DNA from: a virus | Lineage: Duplodnaviria > Heunggongvirae > Uroviricota > Caudoviricetes | Length of the DNA: 19,016 bases | IMG/VR virus record: IMGVR_UViG_2636416161_000001 | Coordinates: 1 to 19,016 of that record | Direction: 5' to 3' (one strand) | Shown here: one piece after another, positions 2,812 through 19,016 of the stretch | Layout of the letters: each line of letters begins with the position of its first letter | How positions within the stretch are numbered: position 1 is the first letter of the stretch | Translations under genes and position numbers: made by a program | The notes under the pieces: generated by a model | What the model was told of the DNA's origin: nothing | The model's input: only the letters and a program-made list of their open reading frames with translations | Databases searched by the model: none

Positions 2812-2836
2812 GTTCGTTTCCTGTTAATAAACTACT

Positions 2837-2854
2837 GGCGCGGCTGCCCGCGCC
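2837..2854 (-). terminator. GC-rich hairpin between FII and E (possible attenuating terminator or mRNA stabiliser)
   Basis: ggcgcgg (2837..2843) pairs with ccgcgcc (2848..2854) around a 4-nt loop. On the minus-strand transcript it is followed by AGUAGUUUAUUAAC, an interrupted U tract. Confidence 0.35.
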
Positions 2855-2865
2855 GTTAAGGTTAA

Positions 2866-3381: not shown

Positions 3382-3390
3382 GGTGTCCCC

Positions 3391-4563: not shown

Positions 4564-4636
4564 AAGGCAGTCTCTCCGGTTACAGGGGGTCTGCTTATGT
4601 TCTGAATGATGAGCACATAACGCACGCATCCTGCTA

Positions 4637-4654
4637 TGTGTCAGGCATGGCACA
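4637..4654 (-). promoter_or_regulatory. TGT-N12-ACA dyad, candidate Ogr/Delta-dependent late promoter element for the FI operon
   Basis: tgt gtcaggcatggc aca; centre lies 82.5 bp upstream of the FI ATG, in the 104-bp gap between the invertase stop and the FI start. Confidence 0.5.
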
Positions 4655-4667
4655 ACAAGCGGCAAAA

Positions 4668-5234
4668 CTATTGAGTGGAAGCTAACGGAGTGGCAGGGAA
4701 TTTTTTATAAAGCGTAGATACCCCCACATCAAAAATAAGGGCCACTCTTTGCCGGGTTTCGCCTGCAGCAATTAACCGCCCGGCTTGCTCCCACTGTTCC
4801 GGCGTTAACTTAGGCCGCCGTCCTCCTATTCTTCCTTGTACTCTTGCAGCAGCTAATCCCGCACGAGTTCTCTCAACGATTAACTCACGTTCCATTTCAG
4901 CCAGGGCGCCCATGATGTGAAAGAAAAAGCGCCCCATGGGTGTCGAGGTATCAATGCTGTCCGTCAGACTGCGGAAATTAACAGCCCGCTGCCGCAGTTC
5001 CTCCACGAGAACCACCAGATGCCGCATACTGCGCCCAAGTCGATCAAGCTTCCAGACAACCAACGTATCTCCCGGTGACAGGGTTTTAAGCAGCTTTTTT
5101 AATCCGGGGCGGTCCGATGTTTTACCGCTCATTTTGTCCTCAAAAATCAGCTCACATCCTGACCGCTCCAGCGCATCACGCTGCAGCGCCGTGTTTTGTT
5201 CATTTGTTGATACGCGCACATAGCCAACCTGCAT
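4668..5234 (-). CDS. Serine DNA invertase (Hin/Gin/Cin/Pin family)
   Basis: [38 protein letters not shown]...[15 protein letters not shown]...[35 protein letters not shown]...GVSTLYKKF: catalytic-serine N-terminal motif, resolvase core and C-terminal HTH. Start taken as ATG 5234 (the ORF-track start 5252 is TTG). AAGGGAA precedes the ATG. Confidence 0.9.
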
Positions 5235-5288
5235 CTGTTTTCCCTTATGCAAAAGCCCGAATGATGCCAGCCAGGCAGGAAAACTGCA

Positions 5289-5314
5289 TTTTCTTAAACG
5301 TTGGTTTAGGAGGA
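5289..5314. repeat. Invertase crossover site 1 (gix/hix-like)
   Basis: ttttcttaaacg TT ggtttaggagga; the right half resembles the gix half-site as I recall it (GGTTTACAGGAA). The core TT occupies codon positions 2-3 of the alternative fibre frame. Confidence 0.55.
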
Positions 5315-5644
5315 GCCGCTAAGTTAGATGCAGCAAGTGCATCATTTGGAGAAAATGGCTGGTTGAGATTACCTGTGCTACTTGGCACTGATAAAAAGAC
5401 GCTTATCATTCAATGGGCATACGGCACAGCTGGAGGATCAAATTCTACAGGGCTTGTTTGTAACTTCCCTTTCACCTTTCCAAATCAGGTATTTACAGTT
5501 ATGACTGGTAATGTCGATCAGACATATACGTCAACCTCTATTCCTGGAGCGATAGGGTTCTGCAATGTTACAAGGGCGTCAATTATTGCAAAAAGCACCT
5601 TGTCATCATCAGAACAATTCTATTATCTGGCTATAGGTTATTAA
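5300..5644 (+). CDS. Promoterless alternative tail-fibre C-terminal segment (Sv'-like), expressed only after inversion
   Basis: Open frame ...VGLGGAAKLDAASASFGENGWLRLPVLLGTDKKTLIIQWAYGTAGGSNSTGL...QFYYLAIGY, homologous to the present H C-terminus (...[18 protein letters not shown]...FNYLAIGY). No start codon of its own; in frame with H across the crossover core. Confidence 0.7.
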   Translation, partial: VGLGGAAKLDAASASFGENGWLRLPVLLGTDKKTLIIQWAYGTAGGSNSTGLVCNFPFTFPNQVFTVMTGNVDQTYTSTSIPGAIGFCNVTRASIIAKSTLSSSEQFYYLAIGY

Positions 5645-5645
5645 T

Positions 5646-6077
5646 ATGGATAAGTTTTTTTATAGTCCTTCCAAAAATGAGTTTTATCTTTCTGATTTAA
5701 GATCTGAATACCTTAAATCAGGGGCGTGGCCTGAGGATTCAGTGGAAGTTAGCGATGATATTGTATTTAACTTTATTCAGACGCCTGCTGAAAAAGGAAA
5801 GATGAGAATAGCAGGTGATGACGGCCTTCCGGCATGGACAGATATACCAGCACCAACTCAAGAAGACATAATTGCTGCAAATGAAGACAAAAAAGCAGCC
5901 CTGCGCGTTATTGCAGATTCAGAAATAGCATGGCGACAGGATGCCGTTGATGTAGGCATCGCGACGGAAGTTGAAACCGCCGCGCTTACTGAATGGAAAA
6001 AATACCGGGTGCTGCTGATGCGTGTTGAAACAGCAGACCCGGAATGGCCTACGCCTCCGGCGACTCAGGCCAGTTAA
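5646..6077 (+). CDS. Tail fibre assembly protein (alternative copy, lambda Tfa-like)
   Basis: MDKFFYSPSKNEFY... N-terminus and ...TEWKKYRVLLMRVETADPEWPTPP C-terminus; ATG lies 1 nt after the alternative fibre stop. Confidence 0.8.
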   Translation: MDKFFYSPSKNEFYLSDLRSEYLKSGAWPEDSVEVSDDIVFNFIQTPAEKGKMRIAGDDGLPAWTDIPAPTQEDIIAANEDKKAALRVIADSEIAWRQDAVDVGIATEVETAALTEWKKYRVLLMRVETADPEWPTPPATQAS

Positions 6078-6483
6078 TATCTGGTGCGCCGGAGGTGTCT
6101 ACGGCCTCCAGCGCATCGAGATAATCCAGCCACAGATTATATTGCCCTTTTTCCACGTCTTTCAGGCGACCTAAAGCGGCTTTGCCGGGCCACTGCTTAC
6201 TATTGATGTAATTGTTCGCTTGTTCAATAAGGTATTGTTTTTTTGCTTCAGCATTTGCAATTAACTCATCTTGTGTAGGTTCAGGGCGCAGAACCCAGAC
6301 TGGCATGTTTTTATCGCTAACCCCACGAATCATTCCCTCAGGTGGAATTCCTGTGAACTCTATAAAAATAGAATCTTCTACATCAACTCCATCCTCCGGC
6401 CATGAGTCTGTTGCTTCGTATGAAGTTTTTAGCTCAAACGGATAGAAAGCATTTTTTGATGGACTAAAAATATAATTTCCCAT
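6049..6483 (-). CDS. Tail fibre assembly protein (copy expressed in the current orientation)
   Basis: MGNYIFSPSKNAFYPFEL... (ATG 6483, 1 nt after the H stop; the ORF track extends to 6495). C-terminus ...DINWPESPEA. Its 3' end overlaps the convergent tfa' by 29 nt. Confidence 0.8.
   Translation of the reverse strand: MGNYIFSPSKNAFYPFELKTSYEATDSWPEDGVDVEDSIFIEFTGIPPEGMIRGVSDKNMPVWVLRPEPTQDELIANAEAKKQYLIEQANNYINSKQWPGKAALGRLKDVEKGQYNLWLDYLDALEAVDTSGAPDINWPESPEA
6052..6097. other. Dyad symmetry at the overlapping 3' ends of the two tfa genes, near the centre of the invertible segment
   Basis: cgcctccggcg (6052..6062) and cgccggaggtg (6087..6097) form an 11-bp inverted repeat with one mismatch, with inner ccag/ctgg pairing. 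Dyad centre 6074.5 versus segment centre 6067.5. Confidence 0.4.
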
Positions 6484-6484
6484 G

Positions 6485-7882
6485 TCAGTACCCAATCGCT
6501 AAATAGTTAAAGGCATCCGAGTTAGCTGCGGCTGACTTCGCAATAAACCCAGTGGTAGTGGGCGACGAAATACCGACTGCTGCTGGCTGTTGTTCTGAAG
6601 TATAAGAGGGGTCAATCTGCCCGGTCGTAATGATGATAATCCCTGACGGGAATGGAATTGGGAACGTATTAGATATTCCCGTTGATGCTGAGTTACCTGC
6701 ATTCGCAGATCCCCACTGCAAAATGTATCCTCCCGGTAGTTTTTGATACCCAGATCCTGACGCGAAGGCGGACATGTCCGGTATCTGATTTGCCCCCGTC
6801 CCGACATTCCTTTTCGATGCCGTTCCCAAACCAAGGTATGCGAGAAGACCAGCTACATCCTTTCCACTCAAATGAGTCAGCGTATTGTCCAGCGGTTGTT
6901 TACCTGCCAGTGCATTAAGCATTGTCGTGGCAAAGTTCGGGTCATTCCCCAGCGCCGCCGCCAGTTCGTTCAGTGTATCCAGTGCCGCAGGTGCAGAACC
7001 CACCATTGCCGCAATCGCCGATTTCACAAAAGCCGTAGTGGCAATCTGTGTATTGTTGACCGACTGTGCCGCCGTGGGGGCTGTTGGCGTTCCGGTGAGT
7101 GCCGGACTCGACAACGGTGCTTTTAGTGCCAGCACATTGTTAATGGTGGTACTGAAATTCGGATCATTGTTAATGGCTGCGGCTATTTCTTTCAGCGTGT
7201 CCAGCGTGGCTGGCGCACCATTAATAAGGGCCGTCAGTGCCGCCTGTACAAACGCGGTGGTCGCAAGCTGCGTGGTATTATTCCCCGCCGCTGGCGTTGG
7301 CGCTTTGGGGGTTCCGGTAAACGTTGGACTTTCTTTGGGTGCATACTGTGAATGCGGGTCCGGCGCGGCAAGATGTTTTGCCATCAGGTCATCCACGTAC
7401 ACCTTCAGCTCCAGTGCCTTGTCATCCACATACTTGCGGGTTGCCAGCACTACAGCAGGGTCGATTTTCAGGGTGATATTGTCCGTGCTGCTGGTAATCA
7501 GCACCATGCGCACGGTCTGGGTACGCCCGCTGCCTTCAGCCAGTTGCGGCTTATAGCTTTCCGGGCAGTTGCCCACGGCAATCAATGCCCCGGACTCATC
7601 AAACAGACCCACTTCACGTATCCACCAACCACCCTCATTTTCAGGGATCACCTGTTCAGCAATAATCTGGCTGCTGTTCTGCGGGTCGATATAGAGCATA
7701 TTCAGCGCAGCCCGGCGTTTCTCATTTACCAGTGCCGTCTGCTTTGCGTCCGGCGTCGGCAATGCTCCGCCGCCATCGCCCACCGCCATATGGGTAATTT
7801 TTAGCGGCACACCGAGCGCGGCGGCGCTGGCAAGTTTCGCCGCGCCAATATCCGTCAGCAGGGTATAAAATTTTGTGCTCAT
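6485..7882 (-). CDS. H: Tail fibre protein gpH (constant N-terminal part plus currently fused variable C-terminus)
   Basis: 465 aa [42 protein letters not shown]..., recognised as P2 gpH-like at the N-terminus. Start overlaps the I stop (ATGA). C-terminus ends ...NYLAIGY. Confidence 0.9.
6821..6846. repeat. Invertase crossover site 2 (gix/hix-like), inside H
   Basis: cgttcccaaacc AA ggtatgcgagaa; left half close to the gix-type half-site TTCC..AAACC. Core is inverted relative to site 1 and in the same codon phase (H codons TAC CTT GGT TTG GGA = YLGLG). Confidence 0.55.
6887..7327 (-). repeat. Tandem duplicated module of about 74 aa (about 222 bp) inside H
   Basis: [72 protein letters not shown] and [72 protein letters not shown], visible also as diverged nucleotide repeats. 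Confidence 0.5.
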
Positions 7883-8484
7883 GGATTCACTCTCATTGTG
7901 TCAATAACATGGACCGCCCCGCCTTCATGCGCGGTGCCGCCGGAAATAATTGTTTCGTTGATATACGGATAGATCGTGATTTCTTCGCCAAGATAGCTGG
8001 CGGCCCCCACCCAATGCGGACCGCTGGTCTGCAGATTGATGGACATGCCGATCATGTGACGGCTACATGGTTTGGCATCGCTTATCAGCCGCTCAAGTTC
8101 CAGATAGGTATCTTCAGTGATGCCCTGGTCCTGCACGCCGATATCCAGGCGAAACGTGCCCGGTGTTTCTCCGGTCTGCCACCACTCAATAATGCGGATC
8201 AGGAAGCCGAACGGCTCCACCACCCGCCGTACGGCACTGGTGGTTCCTTTGTGCTGATGAATATAAAAAGCATCCTTCACTACCTGGCGTTTGACGCTTT
8301 CTGTCCAGCCCTCGTCCCAGCGATCCACAGAGAACGCCCAGGCGAGATAAGGCAGGAAACTGACCGGACAGGTTGCCGGATTCCACAAGTCACGAAGCGG
8401 CACCTGCAGATCAGAAATCCCGCTGCAGGTTTGCGCCAGTCGGCGCTCCAGTGAAGTTGAACCCGGTGGCAGCAGACTATTCAT
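7879..8484 (-). CDS. I: Baseplate assembly protein gpI
   Basis: 201 aa ORF ...[29 protein letters not shown]...GTFRLDIGV..., recognised as P2 gpI-like; ATG 8484; stop overlaps the H start. Confidence 0.85.
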
Positions 8485-9385
8485 CCGTTCCTCCGTTGGT
8501 TACGCTCCACTGCGTACATGATGCGGCCTGTGTTTTGTTCAGGACCACATCCGCCAGCGGTGAAGCCAGCTCCACACGTTGAACCCCCTCAACATGCAGC
8601 GCGGCAAAAATGGCACTACGGCGAATATCCCGACCAAGCCGCGTCTGACTGGCGATGTACTTCTGCAGGCTGGCTTTTGCCGCTGCCATTACCGGCTCCG
8701 CTTCCGGTCCCGGATAGAGAAAAATGGAGGCTTCCACACGTTACGGGATGATTTCTGCACTGCGAACCGTCAGACGGTCAGCCACCGGGCGGACGTTCTC
8801 ACTGTTCAGGGCTTTTTCCACCACATCCAGCAGGTCTTTTTCTGCTGTTCCGTCGCCTTCGCGGCTAAGGACTGTCAGCACCACCTCTGCAGGTGCCGGA
8901 CTGGTTGCACTGGCATCCGCCACCCGACCGTCGGCGCTTCGGGCATGAAATTCATAAGCTGCAGTTGGCCCCGCAACTGAAAGCCCCTCAAAGGCTGCAG
9001 GCACACGCAGGCGTAACGCTTCATCGCTTTCCATCACAGCTGCAACGGGCGGCACAGCGTCATCATCAGCAGGCGTCACCGTCAGGCGTTTCACGTTGTA
9101 GTTGGCAGCGAGCTGGTCAAGATCGCTGCCCATCGCGTAAGCCACCATCACAGCCTGCGCGGCTTCGTTAATGCGCTGGCGCAGAAGCAACTCACGGTAA
9201 GCGTTCTCCTGCAGCAATTTGGTGACGGGTTCAGATTCCAGTTCCAGCGTGCGGATCACTGCTTCCTGCTCATCTTTCGGATGAAGCGCCACAAATTCGG
9301 CCTTGCGTTCGGCAAGCAGCGTCTCAAAGTCCGGCACATCCACAATCTGCGGCGCAGGCAACTGCGAAAGGTCAATCACTGCCAT
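8477..9385 (-). pseudogene. J: Baseplate protein gpJ interrupted by an in-frame TAA (ochre) at 8743..8741
   Basis: Two ORF-track ORFs, 8741..9424 and 8477..8737, are in the same frame, separated only by TAA plus one codon: ...RLTVRSAEIIP * RVEASIFLYPGPEAEP.... Likely start MAVIDLSQLPAP at 9385 (AGGAG upstream). Joined length is about 302 codons. Confidence 0.7.
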
Positions 9386-9731
9386 TCTCTGCTCCTGTTG
9401 ATACGGAAAGGGAAACAGGCACACCGTTATTACGCCGCCCGGTCAGCTCCACCACCATAGAACCGTCAAAGTTGCTGTTGATGGTGATGGAATCAAGCGT
9501 CAGCCGTGGCTCCCAGCGACTCAGCGCCGCATACACTGCCGACATGACCTGCAGGCGTAATGCCGGATTTTGTGGCTGGTCTATCAGTGCCGACAGCAGG
9601 GAACCATATTCCCGACGGGCAATGCGGCTACCCTGTGGCGTCAGCAGAATGTCCCGCACCGACTGGCGCAGATGGTCAATATCAGTAATGACTTTGCCGC
9701 TGGTATTGTTCATCCCGCTATAAAGCGTCAT
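9372..9731 (-). CDS. W: Baseplate wedge protein gpW (gp25/GPW family)
   Basis: 119 aa ORF MTLYSGMNNTSGKVITDIDHLRQSVRDILLTPQGSRIARREYGS...; ATG 9731 overlaps the V stop. Confidence 0.85.
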   Translation of the reverse strand: MTLYSGMNNTSGKVITDIDHLRQSVRDILLTPQGSRIARREYGSLLSALIDQPQNPALRLQVMSAVYAALSRWEPRLTLDSITINSNFDGSMVVELTGRRNNGVPVSLSVSTGAENGSD

Positions 9732-10306
9732 ACCGGGCCTCCGGTTGTATCGCCGCCTTTCAGGACGCCGGTATGCTGATGCGCATCAACCACGATCCCG
9801 TTAGAACTCATCGCTCCGCCGCCCTGGGTAACGCCACCATTGATCACCACTTCGCTGTTAATGCGCGTGCGGTCAGCCTCCAGTACAAACTCACTGGTTT
9901 TCATGGTGATGTTGTCAGCGGCCTCAATGACCATTGATTTGATGCCCCTGACATACCAGCGCCCGGTGGCGGGTTCGTATTCAAACCAGCCACCGTCAGG
10001 ATGTTCTGTCACGCAGGCGTCCGCCGACGTCGACGGTGGCGCGAACTGATTCGAATAGATGGCGGGTAACGCAAAGGCGGTTTCCAGATTGCCGCCCAGA
10101 CTCAGCAGCACCACCTGCTCACCTTCCGATGGTCGCCACCATGTGCGGGCATTCCCGGCACGCAGCGTCAGCCAGCTGATCCAGTTGGTTTCAAGCTCGC
10201 CCGTTTTCACCCGGCAAAGCCAGTTTTCCCTGTCCACTTCGGTGACTACCCCAGTGCGGATCAGGTTGGTGATAAGGCGCATGATTTCGGTTAATTGTGC
10301 GTTCAT
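9728..10306 (-). CDS. V: Baseplate central spike protein gpV
   Basis: 192 aa ORF MNAQLTEIMRLITNLIRTGVVTEVDRENWLCRVKTGELETNWISWLTLRAGNARTWWRPSEGEQ..., recognised as P2 gpV-like. Confidence 0.85.
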   Translation of the reverse strand: MNAQLTEIMRLITNLIRTGVVTEVDRENWLCRVKTGELETNWISWLTLRAGNARTWWRPSEGEQVVLLSLGGNLETAFALPAIYSNQFAPPSTSADACVTEHPDGGWFEYEPATGRWYVRGIKSMVIEAADNITMKTSEFVLEADRTRINSEVVINGGVTQGGGAMSSNGIVVDAHQHTGVLKGGDTTGGPV

Positions 10307-10352
10307 AGGGAAAGGTTGCCATCAGGGGAAGAAAGGCGGCAGTGCTGCAACT

Positions 10353-10370
10353 TGTATCAGTGCTGATACA
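10353..10370 (-). promoter_or_regulatory. TGT-N12-ACA dyad (perfect 20-bp palindrome TTGTATCAGTGCTGATACAA), candidate late promoter element for the V operon
   Basis: Located in the 68-bp S-V gap; centre is 55.5 bp upstream of the V ATG; no Shine-Dalgarno evident before V. Confidence 0.5.
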
Positions 10371-10374
10371 AAGA

Positions 10375-10821
10375 TCACTCCGCCAGCCATTGCAGAATCA
10401 TGTCGCGGGTCATTGCCTCAACATCATCATTTACACCCAGCAGGCGGCGCTCTGCGTAACGGACCTCCGGTCCTTTGCGACTGACGCGATCACGCAGGCC
10501 GTAATGGTGAACACGGGCAATACGCTGCACCTTGCCTTCAAACTGTACGCTGGCAGAGTCGGCGCTGGCGGCAGTTTTCAGGTATTTTGTGGTGCGCAGC
10601 TTTGCAAACATCTGACGTTTGATGCGGCCTTTTTTACTGCGTGCTGTTACCCGTCGCGGTTCATAGCTGCTGCCGTCAGGGTTGCGCTGCATCCTGATGT
10701 TCTGCTGCTGTGTCCGGCGCAGTTCCTGCGCCAGCTGGCGCATCATGCGACTTCTGGCGGCTGGCTCCAGATTCGCCAGCAAGGCACTCAGCCAGTCGTC
10801 CACTTTCTGCAGTTCAGCCAC
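10375..10821 (-). CDS. S: Tail completion / virion morphogenesis protein gpS
   Basis: 148 aa ORF ...RNPDGSSYEPRRVTARSKKGRIKRQMFAKLRT...; start codon at 10821 is GTG, overlapping the R stop. Confidence 0.8.
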   Translation of the reverse strand: MAELQKVDDWLSALLANLEPAARSRMMRQLAQELRRTQQQNIRMQRNPDGSSYEPRRVTARSKKGRIKRQMFAKLRTTKYLKTAASADSASVQFEGKVQRIARVHHYGLRDRVSRKGPEVRYAERRLLGVNDDVEAMTRDMILQWLAE

Positions 10822-11245
10822 GTTTCACCGTCCACATTTCTTCAGGTTCATCAGGTTCCGCTACAGCTTCAACGCTCGACACACTGCCGTCAGTGCTGAC
10901 CAGCACACGCTCCGTCAGTTGCAGGTTCAGGCTGATATCACAGACATCGTTGCGCAGAATATCCACCTCAAAGGTGAATAGTTTTTCCCGTAACGCCGGG
11001 TTATTGATGGCATCGGGCTGGTTATCCCTCAGCCACAGCAAAACCGGGGCCATCAGCAGATTCTGGTCGCCGCTGAAATCCTCAATCACCGCATTCAGGG
11101 TGTAACGGTACTCCCACGACATGGAGCTGGCCCCCGTGGCAACCAGCGAACCGTTATCCACAAACAGATGCAGTTTGTCCGGGTTATTGCGGACATAAGG
11201 CACCGCTTTATTGAGGGCGTGGCGCAGGGATTGTGGTTTGTTCAC
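10814..11245 (-). CDS. R: Tail completion protein gpR
   Basis: ...LHLFVDNGSLVATGASSMSWEYRYTLNAVIEDFSGDQNLLMAPVLLWLRDNQPD...; the ORF-track start 11266 is TTG. Preferred start is GTG at 11245 (VNKPQSLRHAL), preceded by AGGAG at -8. Confidence 0.75.
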   Translation of the reverse strand: MNKPQSLRHALNKAVPYVRNNPDKLHLFVDNGSLVATGASSMSWEYRYTLNAVIEDFSGDQNLLMAPVLLWLRDNQPDAINNPALREKLFTFEVDILRNDVCDISLNLQLTERVLVSTDGSVSSVEAVAEPDEPEEMWTVKRG

Positions 11246-11498
11246 TGTTTCGCTCCTGACACGCAATAATCATGTCCACTTTGTCTGCACAGACCGCCCA
11301 GGCGGCCTCCGTTTCATCCAGCAACGCGTCCAGATCACCGTTAGTGCGCGGCGTTGCCTGCTCCAGCCGACACGGCGTCACTCGCGGACAACCACTGACG
11401 GTAAGCTGCACCTCCGGTGAGTGTCGGACGTTCCCGCAGCCGGATAATGTCAGCAGGCAAAGGAGTATCAGCCCAGCGGCGTAAATCCTCGTTCTCAC
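11208..11498 (-). CDS. Rz1-like outer-membrane lipoprotein o-spanin (LysC-like), embedded out of frame in lysB and running into R
   Basis: MRTRIYAAGLILLCLLTLSGC... has a lipobox LSGC and a Pro-rich mature part. GTG start at 11498 preceded by GAGGAG. Overlaps lysB (11341..11769) in another frame. Confidence 0.65.
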   Translation of the reverse strand: MRTRIYAAGLILLCLLTLSGCGNVRHSPEVQLTVSGCPRVTPCRLEQATPRTNGDLDALLDETEAAWAVCADKVDMIIACQERNSEQTTIPAPRPQ

Positions 11499-11769
11499 GT
11501 TTCAGCTCCTCGATCCGGTGTTGTCGTTGTCTCAGCAGCGCGCTGGTCTGTTCTGCTTCGGCATAGAGCCGCGCCTGCTCCCGGTTATTTGTTTCAGTCA
11601 GAATGGACAGGCTAATAAGCTGGCTGTTGCTCTTTGCCAGTGCCTGGCTTTTGCTCTGCAGCTCGTCTGACTGCGTGCTGATGGTCTGGCTGGCATCAGC
11701 CAGCCGCCACGTCTGCCAGCCCAGCGCCGCCAGTAATAACGCCAGCACAACCAGCAGCAACCGGTTCAT
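11341..11769 (-). CDS. Rz-like i-spanin (LysB-like)
   Basis: N-terminal TM segment MNRLLLVVLALLLAALGW, then a coiled-coil-type charged region (...QRQHRIEELKRENEDLRRW...); ATG 11769 overlaps the lysA stop. Confidence 0.75.
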   Translation of the reverse strand: MNRLLLVVLALLLAALGWQTWRLADASQTISTQSDELQSKSQALAKSNSQLISLSILTETNNREQARLYAEAEQTSALLRQRQHRIEELKRENEDLRRWADTPLPADIIRLRERPTLTGGAAYRQWLSASDAVSAGAGNAAH

Positions 11770-12143
11770 GCTGCTACCTGTTGCGCCATCTGATTACGGG
11801 TGATCCAGAAGGCAATAACGGTCAGCAGATAAAAGACCAGGGTAATAGCCCACCCCGTCCAGGCGAGACTTACGACAACCAGCAATCGCATCACCCAACT
11901 GATAAATACGTTTTCTTTTCGGGTAATTGTCTTCAGCAAAGATGCCCTTAACTCCTGCCAGAGCGGGCTATTCTTAATTAACGCAGCCAGTGCTACCGGA
12001 ATTACCGCCCATGTCAGCAAACAGGCTACCCAAACGCCGGACGCTGCCAGTACCGGAAAAATCCCCTGCGGATACACCATTGCTGCGATTAACAACGCCA
12101 TCCATAACATCAGAAACAGTCCGCTGATTAATTTCTTTTTCAT
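11766..12143 (-). CDS. LysA-like polytopic membrane protein (lysis timing; function inferred)
   Basis: MKKKLISGLFLMLWMALLIAAMVYP... with about 4 hydrophobic segments. ATG at 12143 is 1 nt after the endolysin stop and preceded by GGGAG; the ORF-track start at 12215 is an upstream extension into the endolysin. Confidence 0.6.
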   Translation of the reverse strand: MKKKLISGLFLMLWMALLIAAMVYPQGIFPVLAASGVWVACLLTWAVIPVALAALIKNSPLWQELRASLLKTITRKENVFISWVMRLLVVVSLAWTGWAITLVFYLLTVIAFWITRNQMAQQVAA

Positions 12144-12144
12144 T

Positions 12145-12657
12145 TCAGTTTGCTCCCTGTAAACACCAGGCCATCTCCCGCGCACGGCGGTTATCCAGCC
12201 CCTGATTAAACACACCTTTTACATAAACCCAGCGCGGCAACTGTCGGCACGCATCCGCCCAGCGCCGCTGATTGAGCAATTTCACCAGCGTGGAGCTGCA
12301 GGCATTGCCTGTCCCCACGTTGAAGGCAAACGACACCACCGAGTCATACACCTTTTGTGGCGGCTGTTGCTTCACACATCTTTCCAGCGCCCGCTCCACA
12401 CGCAGCACGTTGGAGATAAGCCCTTCTGCTGCCTGTCGTTCCGTAATGGTTTTGCCGGGAATGACGCCCGACGTATTACCAATGCCGTCAGTCCATACAC
12501 CCGCGCTGCACTGATACGGCTGCAGACGACAGCCTTCGTAATCGGCAATCAGTTTCAGTCCTTCCACGGAGGTGTGAAGCTGCTGAAAACCCGGCAGCGT
12601 GGCAGCAATAGCCAGCACGGTCCCGACAAGGCAGCGTTTAACGATTGATGGATTCAT
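12145..12657 (-). CDS. SAR (signal-anchor-release) endolysin, T4-lysozyme-like
   Basis: N-terminal weakly hydrophobic Gly/Ala-rich segment KRCLVGTVLAIAATLPG, then a lysozyme catalytic region (VEGLKLIADYEGCRLQPYQ...GVWTDGIGNT) resembling the phage 21 R / P1 Lyz type. Confidence 0.8.
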   Translation of the reverse strand: MNPSIVKRCLVGTVLAIAATLPGFQQLHTSVEGLKLIADYEGCRLQPYQCSAGVWTDGIGNTSGVIPGKTITERQAAEGLISNVLRVERALERCVKQQPPQKVYDSVVSFAFNVGTGNACSSTLVKLLNQRRWADACRQLPRWVYVKGVFNQGLDNRRAREMAWCLQGAN

Positions 12658-12853
12658 AGTCCTCCCGCGTGATCTGCCCGTCGCGCAGAAGCTGGTAGGC
12701 TTTGTGTTTGTAGTACCAGTTGATAGCCAGCATCAGCACACCGATCATCAGGCCGCCCAGCGTTGAGGCATCCTTGATGGACAAATCGCCCAGCCAGGCC
12801 AGCACGACGGCGATGCAATACGTGATAAAGGCGCTGATTCGCTCAAGCGTCAT
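12638..12853 (-). CDS. Small two-TMD holin (pinholin-like)
   Basis: 71 aa with two hydrophobic segments (ISAFITYCIAVVLAWLG; LGGLMIGVLMLAINWYY) and a charged C-terminus. Overlaps the endolysin start by 20 nt and sits directly upstream of a SAR endolysin. Confidence 0.7.
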   Translation of the reverse strand: MTLERISAFITYCIAVVLAWLGDLSIKDASTLGGLMIGVLMLAINWYYKHKAYQLLRDGQITREDYESINR

Positions 12854-12856
12854 AAT

Positions 12857-13060
12857 TCAGTCCCATAGCTGGACGGTCTGCACGGTGGTGGTTGTCGGAA
12901 TGTCCGGCAGCTCCACCTGCAGCCCGTGAGGTAAAAAGGGGCCATATTCGGCAAGCCCCGGATTTGCCTTCAGTACCTGCTCCGTGACACCCTGCGTGCG
13001 CCCGTAATGACGCCAGCAAAGCGCGTCCACCGTGTCATACTGATGCGCACGCACTTTCAT
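12857..13060 (-). CDS. X: Tail protein gpX
   Basis: 67 aa ORF MKVRAHQYDTVDALCWRHYGRTQGVTEQVLKANPGLAEYGPFLPHGLQVELPDI... recognised as P2 gpX-like; ATGA overlap with L. Confidence 0.8.
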   Translation of the reverse strand: MKVRAHQYDTVDALCWRHYGRTQGVTEQVLKANPGLAEYGPFLPHGLQVELPDIPTTTTVQTVQLWD

Positions 13061-13524
13061 CAGATAAGCTCCACTGTGCAGTGCGGCGCGTCCTGTACCC
13101 GGCTGATGGCCCAGCGGGCGTCACGCCATAAATCACCGCTGGCTTCCGCCAGTTCCTCGCCCCGCTTCACACCGGATGCCGTGGCGTCATAGTCCTGGTA
13201 ACGTTCGTTGAGCATGGCGCGTGCCCAGCAGTAAACCGCGTTGAAATAGTGCTGAATGCGCTCACTTTTGCCGTCCAGCTGTTCCGCCGGAACCTCTGCC
13301 AGCGAGGCATACCCCAGCATCTGCTGGCGTCTGCGAAACTCATACAGCTCTGCGTTGACCTCCGAAATTGCCGACAGCGCAACCTGCTTTAAACGCGGCT
13401 GCGTCACCGTGCCGTCAGTGCGCATGACACTGCGAAACTCCGACAGGTCCACATCAGGCCAGAACGGCGTATTTCTGATGATTTCCGCCTGTTCCGGTGC
13501 CTGTTCTGGCGCAACAAACTTCAT
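13060..13524 (-). CDS. L: Head completion / stabilisation protein gpL
   Basis: ...FWPDVDLSEFRSVMRTDGTVTQPRLKQVALSAISEVNAELYEFRRRQ...; preferred start ATG 13524 (MKFVAPEQ...) with AGGAGA at -8. The ORF-track start at 13587 is GTG, giving 175 aa. Confidence 0.8.
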   Translation of the reverse strand: MKFVAPEQAPEQAEIIRNTPFWPDVDLSEFRSVMRTDGTVTQPRLKQVALSAISEVNAELYEFRRRQQMLGYASLAEVPAEQLDGKSERIQHYFNAVYCWARAMLNERYQDYDATASGVKRGEELAEASGDLWRDARWAISRVQDAPHCTVELI

Positions 13525-13619
13525 GCTGCTTTCTCCTGAAATAGAGGGCGGTGGACGGGGTTTTGATGTGGCAGTGCCTTTCGCCACCCCGTGCCGCCCG
13601 TGCGCGGGGGCACGTTCTG

Positions 13620-14270
13620 TCAGCGGCTGTCATTGCGCAGTCTGCGCTCCAGCTGCTGTTTGTCTTTTTTCACGCCACAGCGGGGATCGAGCTGTAACGC
13701 ATGGTTGAGATGATTAAGGGCAGACGCCGGATTGCTTTCACTCAGGACCGCGCCAATCGCTTTATGCAGACGCGCCCGTGACTGGTCCGGCATATCCAGA
13801 CCGTCTGTCAGCTCCAGCGTCTGCAGCAACAGATCGGCATCAAAGCCGGTGGTGGCAAGCATTGCGCTCTGCGCGGCGTCTGCCATTTCCTCTGCCAGCA
13901 CGGTCTGCACGTTGCGGTTACCCAGCGGCATCACCCAGCCATGACGCAGGGCATGACGCCCGATCTCCAGCGCTCCGGCATAATCTCCGGCATCAATGCG
14001 CCACAGCATCACGTACATCAGCACGTCATCCTGTTGAGCGCCTCCGGCAGCCAGGACACCCTCTGCCCAGGCGGCGTACTTCGGCAGCAGCTCCACCTTG
14101 ATTTCCGCTTTTTTGACCGTGGACTGAACGCCCTTGAGACGGCGGCGGTCTTCCGCCAGTTGCAGCAGCATCAGGTCATAGCCCGATGCGTGGCGAACAC
14201 TGCCGCCCTCGCGGGCGGCCTGTTCAGCCTGAACGCGCAGGCGATGCTGCCGTGCGGGACTCAGGCTCAT
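13620..14270 (-). CDS. M: Terminase small (endonuclease) subunit gpM
   Basis: 216 aa ORF MSLSPARQHRLRVQAEQAAREGGSVRHASGYDLMLLQLAEDRRRLK...GAQQDDVLMYVMLWRIDAGDYAGALEIGRHAL... recognised as P2 gpM-like. Confidence 0.85.
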   Translation of the reverse strand: MSLSPARQHRLRVQAEQAAREGGSVRHASGYDLMLLQLAEDRRRLKGVQSTVKKAEIKVELLPKYAAWAEGVLAAGGAQQDDVLMYVMLWRIDAGDYAGALEIGRHALRHGWVMPLGNRNVQTVLAEEMADAAQSAMLATTGFDADLLLQTLELTDGLDMPDQSRARLHKAIGAVLSESNPASALNHLNHALQLDPRCGVKKDKQQLERRLRNDSR

Positions 14271-14273
14271 GGA

Positions 14274-15332
14274 TTACGCTCCGGTTTCGGCTGCGGCGGC
14301 GCTGAAATCACCAATCTGGATGTTTTCCACCAGTGCGGCGCAGCGGTAGTCCTCAACCACATAGGCTTCGTTAACGGATTCAAAGTTTTCAATCCGGTCA
14401 CGTTTCGGGTTGTCGATAACTGAACGGCGGCGGGTGTCTTCCTGCCAGTAGATGGACAGGTTATCCAGACGGGTGATCAGCAGCGCATTCGGCGGGAAGA
14501 ACGGCGCACGCACGGCCTGCAGACCGCCCATGCGTTTCTGACTGATAATCATATCGGCAGCCAGTTTTTCACTGTTTTCCTGCTCTTTGTTGACCAGCGG
14601 GAAATACTTGTCAGACAGCAGTTCACGCCCGCAAATCACCACCAGATCGTCATCGTCCTGGTAGACCACGTCGATAAGCTCATTAACGGCATCCATCACC
14701 ACGGCGTCCAGGTTGGCATATTCGCCACCTTTACCGACTTTCACCGCGCCCGGTGTGGTTTCACCGCCCGTGGTGGTGCTGCCCATGACGTGATCCGGTG
14801 CATCCTCACGGATTTTCTGTAACCAGCCTTTGTTCACATCCTGCAGCAGCGGGTTTTCGCTACGGTTGGAGGTTTTCGCACGCTTCACGCCGTTAAAGCC
14901 GATCATGATGCGGTCCAGTGCCTGACGTTTCACGATGGCGTCACGGATACGCACCTGGAAATCCTGAAACTTCGCCCACAGGTCCAGCTTCGCGTAGGTC
15001 AGCACCGTGTCAAAGTTAGTCTGCTCGCATTTATATTCCACATCGACCATCAGCGTCGGATCGACAGGCTCACGCTCTTTAGCTGTGGTATCAGTGGTTC
15101 CGGCAATGGTGCTGCCAACACCCAACCCCAGCAGCTGACCGGACTGCTCAGTCACTGGCGTGACGTTAATCAGCGTCAGGAATGCGGCGGACTGCTGGAT
15201 CTGATCTTCCAGCGTCTGCTGCACAGACGGCTCTACAGTGAACTTGCTGGACAGTTCTTCAACGGCCACACCGTTCAGACGCGCCAGCTGCTGCAGGTAA
15301 GCGTTAAAAGCAAAGCGGGTATTCTTCTTCAT
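14274..15332 (-). CDS. N: Major capsid protein gpN
   Basis: 352 aa ORF MKKNTRFAFNAYLQQLARLNGVAVEELSSKFTVEPSVQQTLEDQIQQSAAFLTLINV... recognised as P2 gpN-like. Confidence 0.9.
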   Translation of the reverse strand: MKKNTRFAFNAYLQQLARLNGVAVEELSSKFTVEPSVQQTLEDQIQQSAAFLTLINVTPVTEQSGQLLGLGVGSTIAGTTDTTAKEREPVDPTLMVDVEYKCEQTNFDTVLTYAKLDLWAKFQDFQVRIRDAIVKRQALDRIMIGFNGVKRAKTSNRSENPLLQDVNKGWLQKIREDAPDHVMGSTTTGGETTPGAVKVGKGGEYANLDAVVMDAVNELIDVVYQDDDDLVVICGRELLSDKYFPLVNKEQENSEKLAADMIISQKRMGGLQAVRAPFFPPNALLITRLDNLSIYWQEDTRRRSVIDNPKRDRIENFESVNEAYVVEDYRCAALVENIQIGDFSAAAAETGA

Positions 15333-15348
15333 CGGGTTTTGTGCTCCA

Positions 15349-16182
15349 TCAGCAATTGGTCAGAGTGTCAGCGGGGGCGTTACCGCCTGTTGCACGCTGG
15401 CGGTAGTCCTGGCGGCTGTCTTCATGACTCAGCTTATTCACCAGTTCGTTAAAGGCGGTCTGCTGTGCCTGCAGGGCAGTCTCCAGCTCAGACAGACGTT
15501 CTTCCTGCTCAGACAGGGATTTTTCGGTGCGTACGCTCAGGTTTTGCTGCTCAGTGGCGACCAACTCCACGGCCTTATGCACATCAGAGAACCGGGCATC
15601 GTCGGACTGCTCTTTTTTGGTGAACAGTGCCGTGACGCGGGCAAACAGGGACGGCTTGTCCTCCTGGATTTCTTCCAGTTCGATCACCGTTTCCTCTGCG
15701 GCGGTAAAGAGATTGGCGGGATTCTGCTTGCGGTTTGCCAGCGGGTTATGGGCTGCACTGGCGCTGAATGTCAGCATTTCAGTGCCCAGACTGGCAGGAT
15801 CATCAGTGGCAGCCAGGCCGACCAGGTAGGCTTTGCCCGTATCAGCAAACTTCGGGCTGACTTCCATAGAGGTGAATAATTTCTGGCCTTTTTTCACCAG
15901 TTCCACCAGGGATTCCGTTGGCTCAACGTCGGCATACAGCGCCATCTTGCCTGCCAACGGACCTTCTGTGATTTCTTCAGCAAACAGCGCCGTCACCTTG
16001 CCGTAGCGGTTAAAGGTGCTGTCCGGCAGATAAGACTTGATGTGCTCAAGGTTAATCAGCGCGGTATACACCGCCGGGTTGTAGCTGGCTGCCATCTGTT
16101 CCAGCCATTCACGCTGGATTTCGCGTCCGTCGGTGGTGGCACCTTCCACCCCGATGCGAAAACGCTTTGCTTTCACTGTCAT
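15349..16182 (-). CDS. O: Capsid scaffolding protein gpO
   Basis: 277 aa ORF MTVKAKRFRIGVEGATTDGREIQREWLEQMAASYNPAVYTALINLEHIK... recognised as P2 gpO-like; GGAG precedes the ATG. Confidence 0.9.
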   Translation of the reverse strand: MTVKAKRFRIGVEGATTDGREIQREWLEQMAASYNPAVYTALINLEHIKSYLPDSTFNRYGKVTALFAEEITEGPLAGKMALYADVEPTESLVELVKKGQKLFTSMEVSPKFADTGKAYLVGLAATDDPASLGTEMLTFSASAAHNPLANRKQNPANLFTAAEETVIELEEIQEDKPSLFARVTALFTKKEQSDDARFSDVHKAVELVATEQQNLSVRTEKSLSEQEERLSELETALQAQQTAFNELVNKLSHEDSRQDYRQRATGGNAPADTLTNC

Positions 16183-16260
16183 GAGCCGTGCTCCGTTAGA
16201 AAAAACTTACTGGAGCCTTATGGTTGCGGTGATGGGGGCAGTGAAACAATGCGCGGTATT

Positions 16261-16278
16261 TGTACCGACAACCACACA
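16261..16278. promoter_or_regulatory. TGT-N12-ACA dyad in the divergent O/P intergenic region (candidate late promoter element for O, P or both)
   Basis: tgt accgacaaccac aca; centre is 87.5 bp from the O ATG and 55.5 bp from the P ATG. It is the only perfect dyad in the 142-bp gap. Confidence 0.5.
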
Positions 16279-16324
16279 AACCGCAGGCGGGGAAAGCCTT
16301 CATTCAAGGCTGTAGGTTTGTGCC

Positions 16325-18091
16325 ATGAACACCACACTGACACCCGCAGATCTCGATCCCCGTCGGCAGGCCATGCTGCTGTACTTTCAGGGATACCGCG
16401 TAGCCCGCATTGCTGAAATGCTGGGCGAGAAAGTTGCAACCGTTCACAGCTGGAAAAAACGCGACAAGTGGGGTGACTATGGGCCGCTGGATCAGATGCA
16501 GCTCACCACCGCCGCACGCTACTGCCAGCTCATTATGAAGGAGCACAAAGAAGGGAAAGATTTCAAAGAGATTGACCTGCTGGCGCGCCAGTCGGAGCGC
16601 CACGCGCGGATCGGCAAGTTTAACAATGGCGGCAACGAAGCCGACTTAAACCCTAACGTCGCCAACCGCAACAAAGGCCCGCGCCGTCAGCCGGAAAAGA
16701 ATGTTTTCACCGATGAGCAGATTGAGAAGCTGGAAGAAATCTTCCATTCCTCCATGTTCAACTACCAGCGCCACTGGTGGGAAGCCGGAAAAGCCAACCG
16801 CATCCGCAACCTGCTGAAGTCACGCCAGATCGGCGCGACCTTTTACTTTGCCCGTGAAGCCCTGATTGACGCCCTGCTTACCGGACGTAACCAGATTTTC
16901 CTTTCCGCCAGCAAGGCACAGGCCCACGTCTTTAAGCAGTACATCATCGACTTCGCCAAAGAAGTGGAGGTGGAGTTGAAAGGCGATCCGATGGTGCTTC
17001 CTAACGGGGCCACGCTTTACTTCCTCGGCACCAATGCCCGCACTGCCCAGAGTTATCACGGCAACCTGTATCTGGATGAATATTTCTGGATACCGAAATT
17101 CCAGGAGCTGCGCAAAGTGGCTTCCGGTATGGCTATTCACAAAAAATGGCGACAAACCTATTTTTCCACGCCATCCAGCCTGACTCACAGTGCTTATCCG
17201 TTCTGGTCCGGTGCGCTGTTCAATCGTGGGCGCAACAAAGCCGATAAGGTGGACATCGACCTGTCCCACAGCAATCTGGCCCCCGGCCTGCTGTGCGCAG
17301 ACGGGCAGTACCGCCAGATAGTCACTGTGGAAGATGCGGTGCGCGGCGGCTGTAACCTGTTCGACCTCGACCAGTTGCGCATGGAGTACAGCCCGGACGA
17401 ATACCAGAACCTACTGATGTGCGAGTTTGTGGACGATCTCGCGTCCGTGTTTCCGCTCAGCGAGCTGCAGGCGTGCATGGTGGACAGTTGGGAAGTCTGG
17501 ACCGACTTTCATGCTCTGGCCCTGCGCCCGTTTGGCTGGCGCGAAGTGTGGATCGGTTATGACCCGGCAAAAGGTACGCAGAACGGCGACAGCGCCGGAT
17601 GCGTGGTGGTGGCACCGCCAGCCGTGCCGGGCGGTAAGTTTCGCATTCTTGAGCGTCACCAGTGGCGCGGGATGGACTTCCGCGCCCAGGCTGACGCAAT
17701 CAAAAAACTGACCGAGCAGTACAACGTGACCTACATCGGCATCGACTCAACCGGCGTTGGTCACGGGGTTTACGAGAACGTGAAAGCGTTCTTTCCTGCC
17801 GTCCGGGAGTTTGTCTACAACCCCAACGTTAAAAACGCCCTGGTACTCAAGGCCTACGACATTATCAGCCACCGCCGTCTGGAGTTTGACGCCGGACATA
17901 CCGACATTGCGCAGTCATTTATGGCAATCCGTCGCGCCACCACCGCCAGTGGCAACCGCCCGACCTATGAAGCCAGCCGCAGCGAAGAAGCCAGCCACGC
18001 CGATCTGGCATGGGCAACGATGCACGCACTGTTTAACGAACCGCTGCAGGGCGAATCCGCCAATACCAGCAATATTGTGGAGATTTTTTGA
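16325..18091 (+). CDS. P: Terminase large (ATPase) subunit gpP
   Basis: 588 aa ORF MNTTLTPADLDPRRQAMLLYFQGYRVARIAEMLGEKVATVHSWKKRDKW... recognised as P2 gpP-like; stop overlaps the Q start (ATGA). Confidence 0.9.
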   Translation: MNTTLTPADLDPRRQAMLLYFQGYRVARIAEMLGEKVATVHSWKKRDKWGDYGPLDQMQLTTAARYCQLIMKEHKEGKDFKEIDLLARQSERHARIGKFNNGGNEADLNPNVANRNKGPRRQPEKNVFTDEQIEKLEEIFHSSMFNYQRHWWEAGKANRIRNLLKSRQIGATFYFAREALIDALLTGRNQIFLSASKAQAHVFKQYIIDFAKEVEVELKGDPMVLPNGATLYFLGTNARTAQSYHGNLYLDEYFWIPKFQELRKVASGMAIHKKWRQTYFSTPSSLTHSAYPFWSGALFNRGRNKADKVDIDLSHSNLAPGLLCADGQYRQIVTVEDAVRGGCNLFDLDQLRMEYSPDEYQNLLMCEFVDDLASVFPLSELQACMVDSWEVWTDFHALALRPFGWREVWIGYDPAKGTQNGDSAGCVVVAPPAVPGGKFRILERHQWRGMDFRAQADAIKKLTEQYNVTYIGIDSTGVGHGVYENVKAFFPAVREFVYNPNVKNALVLKAYDIISHRRLEFDAGHTDIAQSFMAIRRATTASGNRPTYEASRSEEASHADLAWATMHALFNEPLQGESANTSNIVEIF

Positions 18092-19016
18092 TGGGAAAGA
18101 GTAAGAAGAACCGAGCTGCGGCGACGAAACAGATCCAGCTTAAAAGTCAAACTACAGCCGAAGCATTCAGCTTCGGCGATCCCGTTCCTGTTCTGGACCG
18201 CCGTGAACTGCTGGACTATGTGGAATGCGTACAGATGGACCGTTGGTATGAGCCGCCCGTCAGCTTTGACGGACTGGCGCGCACCTTCCGCGCCGCCGTG
18301 CATCACAGTTCCCCGATTGCAGTAAAGTGCAACATTCTGACCAGTACCTATATCCCTCATCCGCTGCTCAGCCAGCAGGCTTTTTCGCGTTTTGTGCAGG
18401 ACTATCTGGTATTTGGTAACGCCTACCTGGAGAAACGCACGAACCGATTCGGTGAAGTTATCGCCCTTGAGCCAGCCCTGGCAAAATACACCCGACGTGG
18501 ATTAGACCTGGATACCTACTGGTTTGTGCAATACGGCATGACAACGCAACCGTATCAGTTCACGAAAGGCAGCATTTTTCACCTGATGGAACCGGATATC
18601 AACCAGGAGATCTACGGCCTGCCCGGTTATCTTTCTGCCATTCCGTCAGCCCTGCTCAACGAGTCCGCCACGCTGTTCCGTCGAAAGTATTACATTAACG
18701 GCAGTCATGCAGGCTTCATCATGTACATGACCGACGCCGCGCAGAACCAGGAGGATGTAAACAACCTCCGTAACGCGATGAAAAGCGCCAAAGGACCAGG
18801 TAACTTCCGCAATCTGTTTATGTACTCGCCTAACGGCAAAAAGGACGGACTTCAGATCATCCCATTGTCAGAAGTCGCGGCGAAGGATGAGTTTCTGAAT
18901 ATCAAAAATGTCAGCCGCGATGACATGATGGCAGCGCACCGTGTGCCACCGCAAATGATGGGGATTATGCCGAATAATGTTGGGGGGTTTGGGGATGTGG
19001 AGAAGGCAAGCCGTGT
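18091..19016 (+). CDS. Q: Portal (capsid vertex) protein gpQ, 3' end outside the window
   Basis: ATG at 18091, then an open frame to the window end (MGKSKKNRAAATKQIQLKSQTTAEAFSFGDPVPVLDRRELLDYVE...); position after P matches the P2 P-Q operon. Confidence 0.85.
   Translation, partial: MGKSKKNRAAATKQIQLKSQTTAEAFSFGDPVPVLDRRELLDYVECVQMDRWYEPPVSFDGLARTFRAAVHHSSPIAVKCNILTSTYIPHPLLSQQAFSRFVQDYLVFGNAYLEKRTNRFGEVIALEPALAKYTRRGLDLDTYWFVQYGMTTQPYQFTKGSIFHLMEPDINQEIYGLPGYLSAIPSALLNESATLFRRKYYINGSHAGFIMYMTDAAQNQEDVNNLRNAMKSAKGPGNFRNLFMYSPNGKKDGLQIIPLSEVAAKDEFLNIKNVSRDDMMAAHRVPPQMMGIMPNNVGGFGDVEKASR

Follow-up and report, generated by a model that had tools for sequence, protein, structure and literature searches.

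In phage P2, the holin Y is a class I protein with three transmembrane domains (TMDs), and LysA is described as a four-TMD antiholin encoded by a gene of its own (PMC3091744). Kongari et al., who define embedded and overlapped spanin genes, take P2 as the type example of the overlapped arrangement (PMC6139136). In Burkholderia P2-like phages, the holin, endolysin, and antiholin have been replaced and LysB and LysC retained (PMC3091744). Hol of Haemophilus phage HP1, the type member of PF16080, kills cells without lysis and without leakage of β-galactosidase, as a pinholin would; release from the natural host depends on it, its partner is a Sec-dependent endolysin of the signal-anchor-release (SAR) type, and it has no dual start (PMC7312051). 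Depolarizing pinholes of nanometer scale have been shown only for S21, the holin of phage 21 (PMC9636201), and suggested for HP1 Hol (PMC7312051). Here we describe a cassette of five lysis genes in the IMG/VR virus record IMGVR_UViG_2636416161_000001, of which positions 1 to 19,016 were analyzed (19,016 nucleotides, hereafter the window), and compare it with these systems.

Gene content and occurrence of the lysis cassette

The five genes very probably form the lysis module in the late (O-operon-type) transcription unit of a Fels-2-like prophage of the P2 family (Peduoviridae), a kind very common in Escherichia coli and Klebsiella. All five lie on the minus strand, in the order L-X-holin-endolysin-lysA-lysB-lysC-R-S, and all five proteins match curated families in profile searches of Pfam, PHROGs, and NCBI/TIGR models (Table 1). 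The upstream flank, an orthologue of P2 tail gene X, fixes the cassette in a late operon ordered as in P2, L-X-(lysis)-R-S; the downstream flank is an orthologue of R. The genes are tightly packed. The holin gene (ATG 12853, TAA 12638) starts 3 nucleotides past the stop of tail gene X and overlaps the endolysin gene (ATG 12657, with GGGAGG upstream; TGA 12145) by 20 nucleotides, the lysA-like gene begins at ATG 12143, 1 nucleotide past the endolysin stop (TGA-A-ATG), and lysA and lysB are joined by an ATGA overlap. The last 38 nucleotides of lysC (GTG 11498, with GAGGAG 7 nucleotides upstream; TAA 11208) overlap R, whose own start (GTG 11245, with AGGAG upstream) agrees with public annotations.

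An earlier note, made from the letters alone, had outlined a lysis cassette at 11208-12853; the open reading frames (ORFs) lie at the stated limits, and the note had read them correctly gene by gene, apart from the word “embedded” (see below). The small two-TMD holin, the endolysin with an N-terminal signal-anchor-like segment, the LysA-like protein with four TMDs directly behind the endolysin stop, and the Rz-like spanin that it described are likewise borne out by the family matches and hydropathy given below. Chance ORFs of GC-rich DNA are ruled out by the strong family matches together with the codon-position pattern of substitutions. In a comparison of the window with Yersinia phage vB_YpM_MLG42, whose cassette aligns without gaps at 76% identity, substitutions were concentrated at third codon positions, with purifying selection visible in every frame; the endolysin genes, for example, differ at 12, 6, and 60 first, second, and third positions, respectively, and encode proteins that are 92% identical.

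Table 1. Positions of the lysis genes, their predicted segments, and the flanking tail genes in the window
Feature	Position	Strand	Basis
Tail protein X (P2 gpX orthologue), upstream flank	12857..13060	minus	PF05489, E=2.2e-34; 61% identity to P2 X
Class II (two-TMD) holin, HP1-holin family, 71 amino acids	12638..12853	minus	PF16080; phrog_20; hydropathy
Holin TMD1, residues 6-22	12788-12838	minus	hydropathy
Holin TMD2, residues 29-48	12710-12769	minus	hydropathy
GH24 (T4-lysozyme-like) endolysin, P1 Lyz type, 170 amino acids	12145..12657	minus	PF00959, E=2.7e-39; phrog_7
N-terminal signal-anchor (SAR-like) segment, endolysin residues 9-24, CLVGTVLAIAATLPGF	12586..12633	minus	hydropathy
Catalytic motif E41-G-C43-...-C50-5X-T56 (Glu-8X-Cys-5X-Thr)	12490..12537	minus	regex match and alignment
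LysA-family membrane protein, putative antiholin/lysis-timing modulator, 125 amino acids	11766..12143	minus	phrog_162, E=4e-43; NF038378, 119.7 bits
LysB, Rz-like i-spanin, 142 amino acids	11341..11769	minus	TIGR03495, 175.5 bits (cutoff 92.75); phrog_89, E=1.1e-45
LysB N-terminal TMD, residues about 3-20	11710-11763	minus	
LysC, Rz1-like o-spanin lipoprotein, 96 amino acids	11208..11498	minus	NF038368 P2_Rz1, 123.5 bits (cutoff 27); PF23793, E=5e-15
LysC signal peptide and lipobox LSGC, residues 1-21	11436-11498	minus	
Tail completion protein R, downstream flank	10814..11245	minus	PF06891, E=4.1e-46; 53% identity to P2 R

The cassette is common. It is 96.5 to 98.3% identical in nucleotide sequence to the cassettes of Klebsiella and Escherichia coli Peduoviridae phages and 76 to 84% identical to those of MLG42, SopEPhi, SEN8, RE2010, and Fels-2, and 1,038 of 5,426 complete E. 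coli genomes (19%) carry it, with identity reaching 99.9%. It is also present in phages whose deposited records give an isolation host. The Fels-2 RefSeq record already notes a “putative holin, 2 TMDs,” an “endolysin similar to P1 Lyz,” and “P2 LysB-like” and “P2 LysC-like” products; the Center for Phage Technology annotation of the related phage Midge lists a class II holin, a SAR endolysin, a putative antiholin, an i-spanin, and an o-spanin; and the near-identical cassette of KP12 was described in 2023 as P2 type, with a SAR endolysin and overlapped spanins (PMC9902359). The lysis cassette of the window is therefore real, already annotated and described, and ordinary, and with its counterparts in RefSeq, in many phage records, and in the 2023 paper, its discovery as such matters little.

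An endolysin of the P1 Lyz type

In a PDB sequence search, the closest solved relative of the endolysin is P1 Lyz (1XJT, E=5.7e-26; also 1XJU), and the next is R21 of phage 21 (3HDE/3HDF, E about 1.7e-17); identity is 36% with P1 Lyz, 35% with R21, and 33% with HP1 Lys. The Glu-8X-Asp/Cys-5X-Thr motif of such enzymes has been defined, and what the catalytic Cys does in P1 Lyz has been described (PMC3556154); the triad found here, E41-8X-C50-5X-T56, is the form of the T4-lysozyme triad that has Cys. In the alignment, Cys43 and Cys50 fall on Cys44 and Cys51 of P1 Lyz. The protein has a single hydrophobic segment, within K7-R8-C9-LVGTVLAIAATLPGF; the basic residues K7 and R8 precede it, and it contains Cys9. 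MLG42, Fels-2, and Midge keep this Cys, which aligns with Cys13 of P1 Lyz and Cys12 of HP1 Lys. Triad, Cys43/Cys50 pair, and anchor Cys are all seen across relatives at 61 to 93% identity and also in P1 and HP1. By alignment, the endolysin appears to show the disulfide-caged SAR pattern of the P1 type and not that of the R21 type; the definitive test of a SAR endolysin is its release by a pinholin (PMC9239132).

Several features of the N-terminal segment weigh against a retained anchor and would fit an ordinary cleavable Sec signal peptide, which would leave a soluble periplasmic enzyme kept in check by a disulfide or by the energized membrane, like secreted endolysins of the fOg44 type. The anchor core is short (13 to 16 residues, with a 13-residue hydrophobic stretch between K7R8 and P22), only 35% of its residues are Gly, Ala, Ser, or Thr (47 to 59% in P1 Lyz and R21), and it contains a small-x-small motif, A16-I17-A18, that is compatible with signal peptidase cleavage. 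There is also a precedent in T4 RI, whose presumed SAR domain is reported to be cleaved (PMC8385771). Nonetheless, we consider cleavage quite improbable, because the cleaved peptide would take with it Cys9, which is conserved in all close and distant relatives alongside Cys43 and Cys50; this combination of an anchor Cys and a Cys pair makes sense only if the segment stays on the protein, as it does in P1 Lyz. Moreover, the candidate cleavage site (L-P-G before F) is not conserved, reading M-P-D before F in Midge, and P1 Lyz itself has A-I-A in its SAR domain. Xu et al. are said to have found in 2004 that P1 Lyz is not cleaved.

The start of the gene bears on this segment. An alternative GTG start at 12618, used in the 813R9 annotation, was rejected, as it has no Shine-Dalgarno sequence and loses the conserved N-terminus MNPSIVKRC; the N-terminal extension is conserved in MLG42. 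In the 813R9 and Fels-2 RefSeq records the endolysin is truncated to 157 to 158 amino acids, and the basic N-terminus and Cys9 are lost.

A single-sequence AlphaFold2 model of the window endolysin was unusable (mean predicted local distance difference test score, 45.6). For the near-identical KP12 endolysin, a confident AlphaFold model has been published that has a TM-score of 0.83 to 1XJT; that protein was cloned and purified, and lysis zones were reported in spot tests, although the discussion of the same paper states that activity was not yet verified (PMC9902359).

A class II holin of the HP1 family

The holin scores 36.7 bits against PF16080, above the curated threshold of 28.8, and its Prokaryotic Genome Annotation Pipeline (PGAP) name is “HP1 family phage holin.” It also falls in phrog_20 (E=1.9e-26), a remote-homology family that includes S21. 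Two hydrophobic segments, a short N-terminus of zero net charge (MTLER; compare MDK in S21-68), and a basic C-terminus are features of class II holins. In the alignment of TMD2, the S21 positions L-G-(G/S)-L-x-x-G...N-x-Y-x-K are kept (G-G/S-x3-G and N-x3-K), and the polar residues T51 and T54 of S21 are Met and Ile. The gene has a single ATG, at 12853, with no in-frame start upstream and hence no dual-start antiholin isoform.

The earlier note had called this protein a pinholin. What stands is a small class II holin with two TMDs, which the profile match places in the HP1 family; the label itself is functional and is not settled by sequence. Reading from sequence, we lean toward a pinholin, with several points weighing the other way: the score for PF04971 (P21 S) is 23.1 bits, under the cutoff of 26, and pairwise BLASTP and phmmer comparisons with S21 and HP1 Hol gave no significant match (phmmer E=0.0016 against S21 in a 13-sequence database), leaving profiles as the only link. 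TMD1 (ISAFITYCIAVVLAWLG) consists of 35% Gly, Ala, Ser, and Thr, compared with 65% in TMD1 of S21, and its summed biological-scale energy over 17 residues is -0.6, versus +6.2 for S21. The releasable TMD1 of S21 is longer by six residues and much less hydrophobic.

A rival reading is the same cassette with a canonical, large-hole class II holin working beside a SAR endolysin, as in phage P1 (LydA and Lyz). In its favor are TMD1, a normally hydrophobic helix unlike the releasable one of S21, the missing dual start, and the score below the P21 S family threshold. A pinholin is not something that a SAR endolysin needs, and the related Midge protein is labeled only “holin class II” by the Center for Phage Technology. 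We nevertheless consider a large-hole holin the less likely reading, given that the protein belongs to PF16080, whose type member acted as a pinholin, that it shares phrog_20 and the small-residue motif of TMD2 with S21, and that most phages with SAR endolysins encode pinholins (PMC9239132).

Proposed lysis mechanism

In the mechanism that we propose, homology to characterized proteins gives the classes of enzyme and holin, the cysteines that cage the enzyme, and the pair of spanins. The 71-amino-acid class II holin would build up in the inner membrane while the endolysin, exported by Sec, would be held at the membrane by a weak anchor at its N-terminus and caged enzymatically, because a disulfide between Cys43 and Cys50 ties up the catalytic Cys50. 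Once triggered, the holin would depolarize the membrane, most likely through small holes like those of HP1 Hol and S21. The anchor would then exit the bilayer, Cys9 would isomerize the disulfide to a Cys9-Cys43 bond, the part that Cys13 plays in P1 Lyz, and murein would be degraded by the muramidase once refolded. Finally, a spanin complex of LysB in the inner membrane and LysC, a lipoprotein of the outer membrane, would destroy the outer membrane. Retention of the anchor and its release on depolarization, the small size of the holes, and an antiholin role of LysA are the steps that we infer. The four-TMD LysA-family protein may act, by analogy with what is reported for P2 LysA, as a dispensable, antiholin-like timing modulator that substitutes for a dual-start antiholin.

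The LysA-like protein and its variable slot

The LysA-like protein has two long hydrophobic blocks of about two TMDs each, an MKKK N-terminus, a basic central cytoplasmic loop, and a C-terminal Arg, and this hydropathy together with the positive-inside rule predicts four TMDs with both termini inside. P2 LysA belongs to the same family, phrog_162 (E=1.8e-67), and aligns over its full length with the window protein at 22 to 27% identity; the latter is a diverged relative of P2 LysA. Two points weigh against an antiholin function. The antiholin role, even of P2 LysA, is based on a timing phenotype, and LysA is missing from the otherwise 93%-identical cassette of Cartapus; it is therefore not a core component.

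Within the lineage, LysA and not the holin or the endolysin is the most mosaic gene of the cassette. Its product is 40% identical in amino acid sequence to that of MLG42, versus 77 to 92% for the holin, endolysin, LysB, and LysC. In tblastn comparisons across phages, its identities are bimodal, at 95 to 99% in 30 records and below 60% (about 39%) in 18, with none between, and its GC content is 48.9%, compared with 55 to 60% in neighboring genes. In Fels-2 the slot holds an unrelated membrane protein family of about 124 amino acids, phrog_7356, split into two ORFs by an apparent frameshift. Cassettes that are otherwise 76 to 94% identical thus carry this allele, an allele about 40% identical to it, phrog_7356, or an empty slot (Cartapus).

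One tentative explanation, which we would not rate as likely, is that the slot serves as a cartridge for lysis timing whose content is exchanged rapidly. In that case, proteins of the LysA type would act in trans as anti-pinholins, in place of the absent dual-start antiholin, diversifying or modular selection would act on them, and the natural variants would form an allelic series for the function of P2 LysA. It is just as doubtful that the gene stands outside the lysis mechanism altogether, as a passenger membrane protein in a recombination-prone slot that serves, for example, superinfection exclusion or another lysogen function. The low GC content, the bimodal identities, and the different or missing occupants in Fels-2 and Cartapus would suit a passenger, but the protein is a profile-level homologue of P2 LysA at the same position, its gene is translationally coupled on both sides by the 1-nucleotide gap and the ATGA overlap, and lysis timing is altered in P2 lysA mutants (P2 record note; PMC3091744). 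The biology that remains of interest in this cassette is the role of LysA and the question of whether holins of the HP1 family that have a hydrophobic TMD1 act as true pinholins.

Overlapped spanin genes

LysB has an N-terminal TMD (residues 3-20, or 1-21 in the hydropathy profile) followed by a helical periplasmic domain and is 33% identical to P2 LysB over the C-terminal half. LysC is 42% identical to P2 LysC over 92 amino acids and begins with a lipoprotein signal peptide made up of an MRTR n-region, a hydrophobic core, and the lipobox, in which Cys21 is the lipid-bearing residue. The residue after it is Gly, and under the +2 sorting rule, Gly at this position predicts sorting to the outer membrane. 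Mature LysC would comprise 76 amino acids, among them 7 Pro and four periplasmic Cys. MLG42 keeps the GTG start as well as the signal peptide.

The lysC gene is in the +1 frame relative to lysB and starts at 0.63 of the length of lysB, with 158 nucleotides inside lysB and 133 nucleotides beyond its stop. The architecture is therefore overlapped, not embedded, and the NCBI note on the gene likewise reads “not fully embedded.” The earlier note had placed an Rz1-like lipoprotein gene here with a GTG start in the +1 frame, running 38 nucleotides into R; this geometry is exact and the lipobox LSGC is present, but the word “embedded” that it attached to the gene has to be dropped.

Two shorter starts for LysC, a CTG (82 amino acids) and an internal GTG (57 amino acids), were rejected, as both delete the signal peptide. 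Public annotations of LysC differ, with 96 or 94 amino acids in P2 and Fels-2, 82 amino acids from the CTG in E. coli EC361 (PGAP), and 57 amino acids in KP12, 813R9, and MLG42, and only the long form has the lipoprotein signal peptide. Start-annotation errors of the kind seen for LysC and the endolysin have been flagged for spanins (PMC6139136), and the practical value of the present analysis is as a check on the annotated starts of these two genes.

The window LysB has no cysteine, and P2 LysB has two. Intermolecular disulfides have been discussed as a general feature of spanins (PMC6139136); with a Cys-free LysB and, besides the lipid-modified Cys21, four periplasmic Cys in mature LysC, any covalent spanin linkage here would be between LysC molecules only.

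Relation to the P2 lysis genes

In BLASTP comparisons with P2 proteins, the flanking X, LysB, LysC, and R are orthologues at 33 to 61% identity (values above and in Table 1), and L is 41% identical to its P2 counterpart. The endolysin, on the other hand, had no significant match to P2 K (E=0.09), and the holin aligned with P2 Y at 28% over 54 amino acids (E=0.001 in an 8-sequence database), a match of TM composition only. P2 Y belongs to PF04550 and phrog_175, and P2 K belongs to phrog_90 and has no PF00959 match, so that no family is common to the two pairs. On this evidence, the holin and endolysin of the window are a non-homologous alternative to Y and K.

The earlier note had read this as a modular replacement of Y and K by mosaic exchange. 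The replacement itself agrees with a non-homologous pair between P2 orthologues, but it does not record a special mosaic event in this element, since the alternative pair is fixed throughout a whole, very common lineage (Peduoviridae of Klebsiella and E. coli, together with Fels-2 and SopEPhi). The cassette is a textbook case of mosaicism in P2-family phages, with conserved spanin and tail genes around an exchangeable holin/endolysin pair.

Other features of the window

A scan of positions 10300-13700 gave 7 terminator-like sites (3.2 ± 1.7 expected) and 3 promoter-like sites (1.4 expected); none of either kind lies at a minus-strand gene boundary, and the scan showed nothing corresponding to the attenuator annotated inside P2 lysC. 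Terminator-like stem-loops with T-rich tails are present on the coding (minus) strand at 11838-11857, inside lysA, and at 11740-11756, at the start of lysB.

Outside the cassette, the region 4668-6846 resembles an invertible host-range switch of the Mu G or P1 C type. A serine DNA invertase gene (4668-5252, minus; phrog_125, E=1.5e-93) lies beside the tail-fiber gene H (6485-7882, minus), together with a promoterless alternative fiber tip at about 5297-5644 (plus), which is 39% identical to the last 107 amino acids of H, and two opposed fiber-assembly genes (5646-6077, plus; 6049-6495, minus). Two candidate sites for crossover, AAACGTTGGTTTAGGA (5296-5311, plus) and ATACCTTGGTTTGGGA (6839-6824, minus), match at 13 of 16 positions, lie at the junction of constant and variable parts, and both encode G-L-G.

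Near the end of the tail chaperone gene E (2509-2811) is the slippery heptamer TTTTTTG (2548-2554, minus), a conserved slippery motif of the P2 family (PMC3091744). A -1 shift there would yield a 145-amino-acid E+E' product that extends into the beginning of the tape-measure gene, whose open frame (811 amino acids) runs off the left end of the window. Positions 2318-19011 are about 95% identical to the closest Klebsiella and E. coli phages, and the tape-measure region, 1-2317, has no megablast match to them; the end of megablast coverage marks another mosaic boundary.

Comparison with known lysis systems

Among characterized holin/endolysin pairs, hol and lys of HP1 share with the window a PF16080 holin, a GH24 endolysin with a Cys-bearing N-terminal hydrophobic segment and an EGC...C motif, overlapping genes, and the lack of a dual-start antiholin. 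They differ in sequence (about 18% identity for the holin and 33% for the endolysin) and in context, as the HP1 cassette follows the tail tube gene and has no LysA, and an unusual C-out topology has been reported for activated HP1 Hol (PMC7312051). Phage 21 (S21, R21, Rz, and Rz1) likewise combines a class II holin of 71 codons and two TMDs (phrog_20) with a GH24 endolysin that bears an anchor-like N-terminal segment and with a spanin of two components. In contrast to the window, however, S21 has a dual start (S71/S68) and a TMD1 rich in Gly, Ala, and Ser, R21 has Asp and not Cys in its triad and no caging cysteines, and Rz1 is fully embedded. The disulfide-caged SAR endolysin P1 Lyz (1XJT/1XJU) is the best structural relative, with the same Cys-type triad, equivalent caging cysteines, and an anchor Cys, although identity is limited to 36%, the putative anchor of the window endolysin is shorter and less Gly-rich, and a 12-residue insertion of P1 Lyz is absent from it, as it is from R21.

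Compared with the P2 module Y-K-lysA-lysB-lysC, the cassette has the same position between X and R and homologous LysA, LysB, and LysC, and even the 96 codons of lysC, its +1 overlapped arrangement, and its 38-nucleotide overlap with R are the same in P2; the difference lies in the three-TMD class I holin Y and in K, an unrelated soluble endolysin. The nearest counterparts are those of Klebsiella phages KP12 and 4LV2017, Escherichia phages 500465-1 and vB_EcoM-813R9, MLG42, Fels-2, and SopEPhi, which share gene order, gene lengths, and overlaps with the window and are already annotated with a holin, a P1-Lyz-like endolysin, LysA, LysB, and LysC. The closest of these relatives differ from the window by point changes only, whereas Fels-2 and Cartapus differ in the LysA slot.

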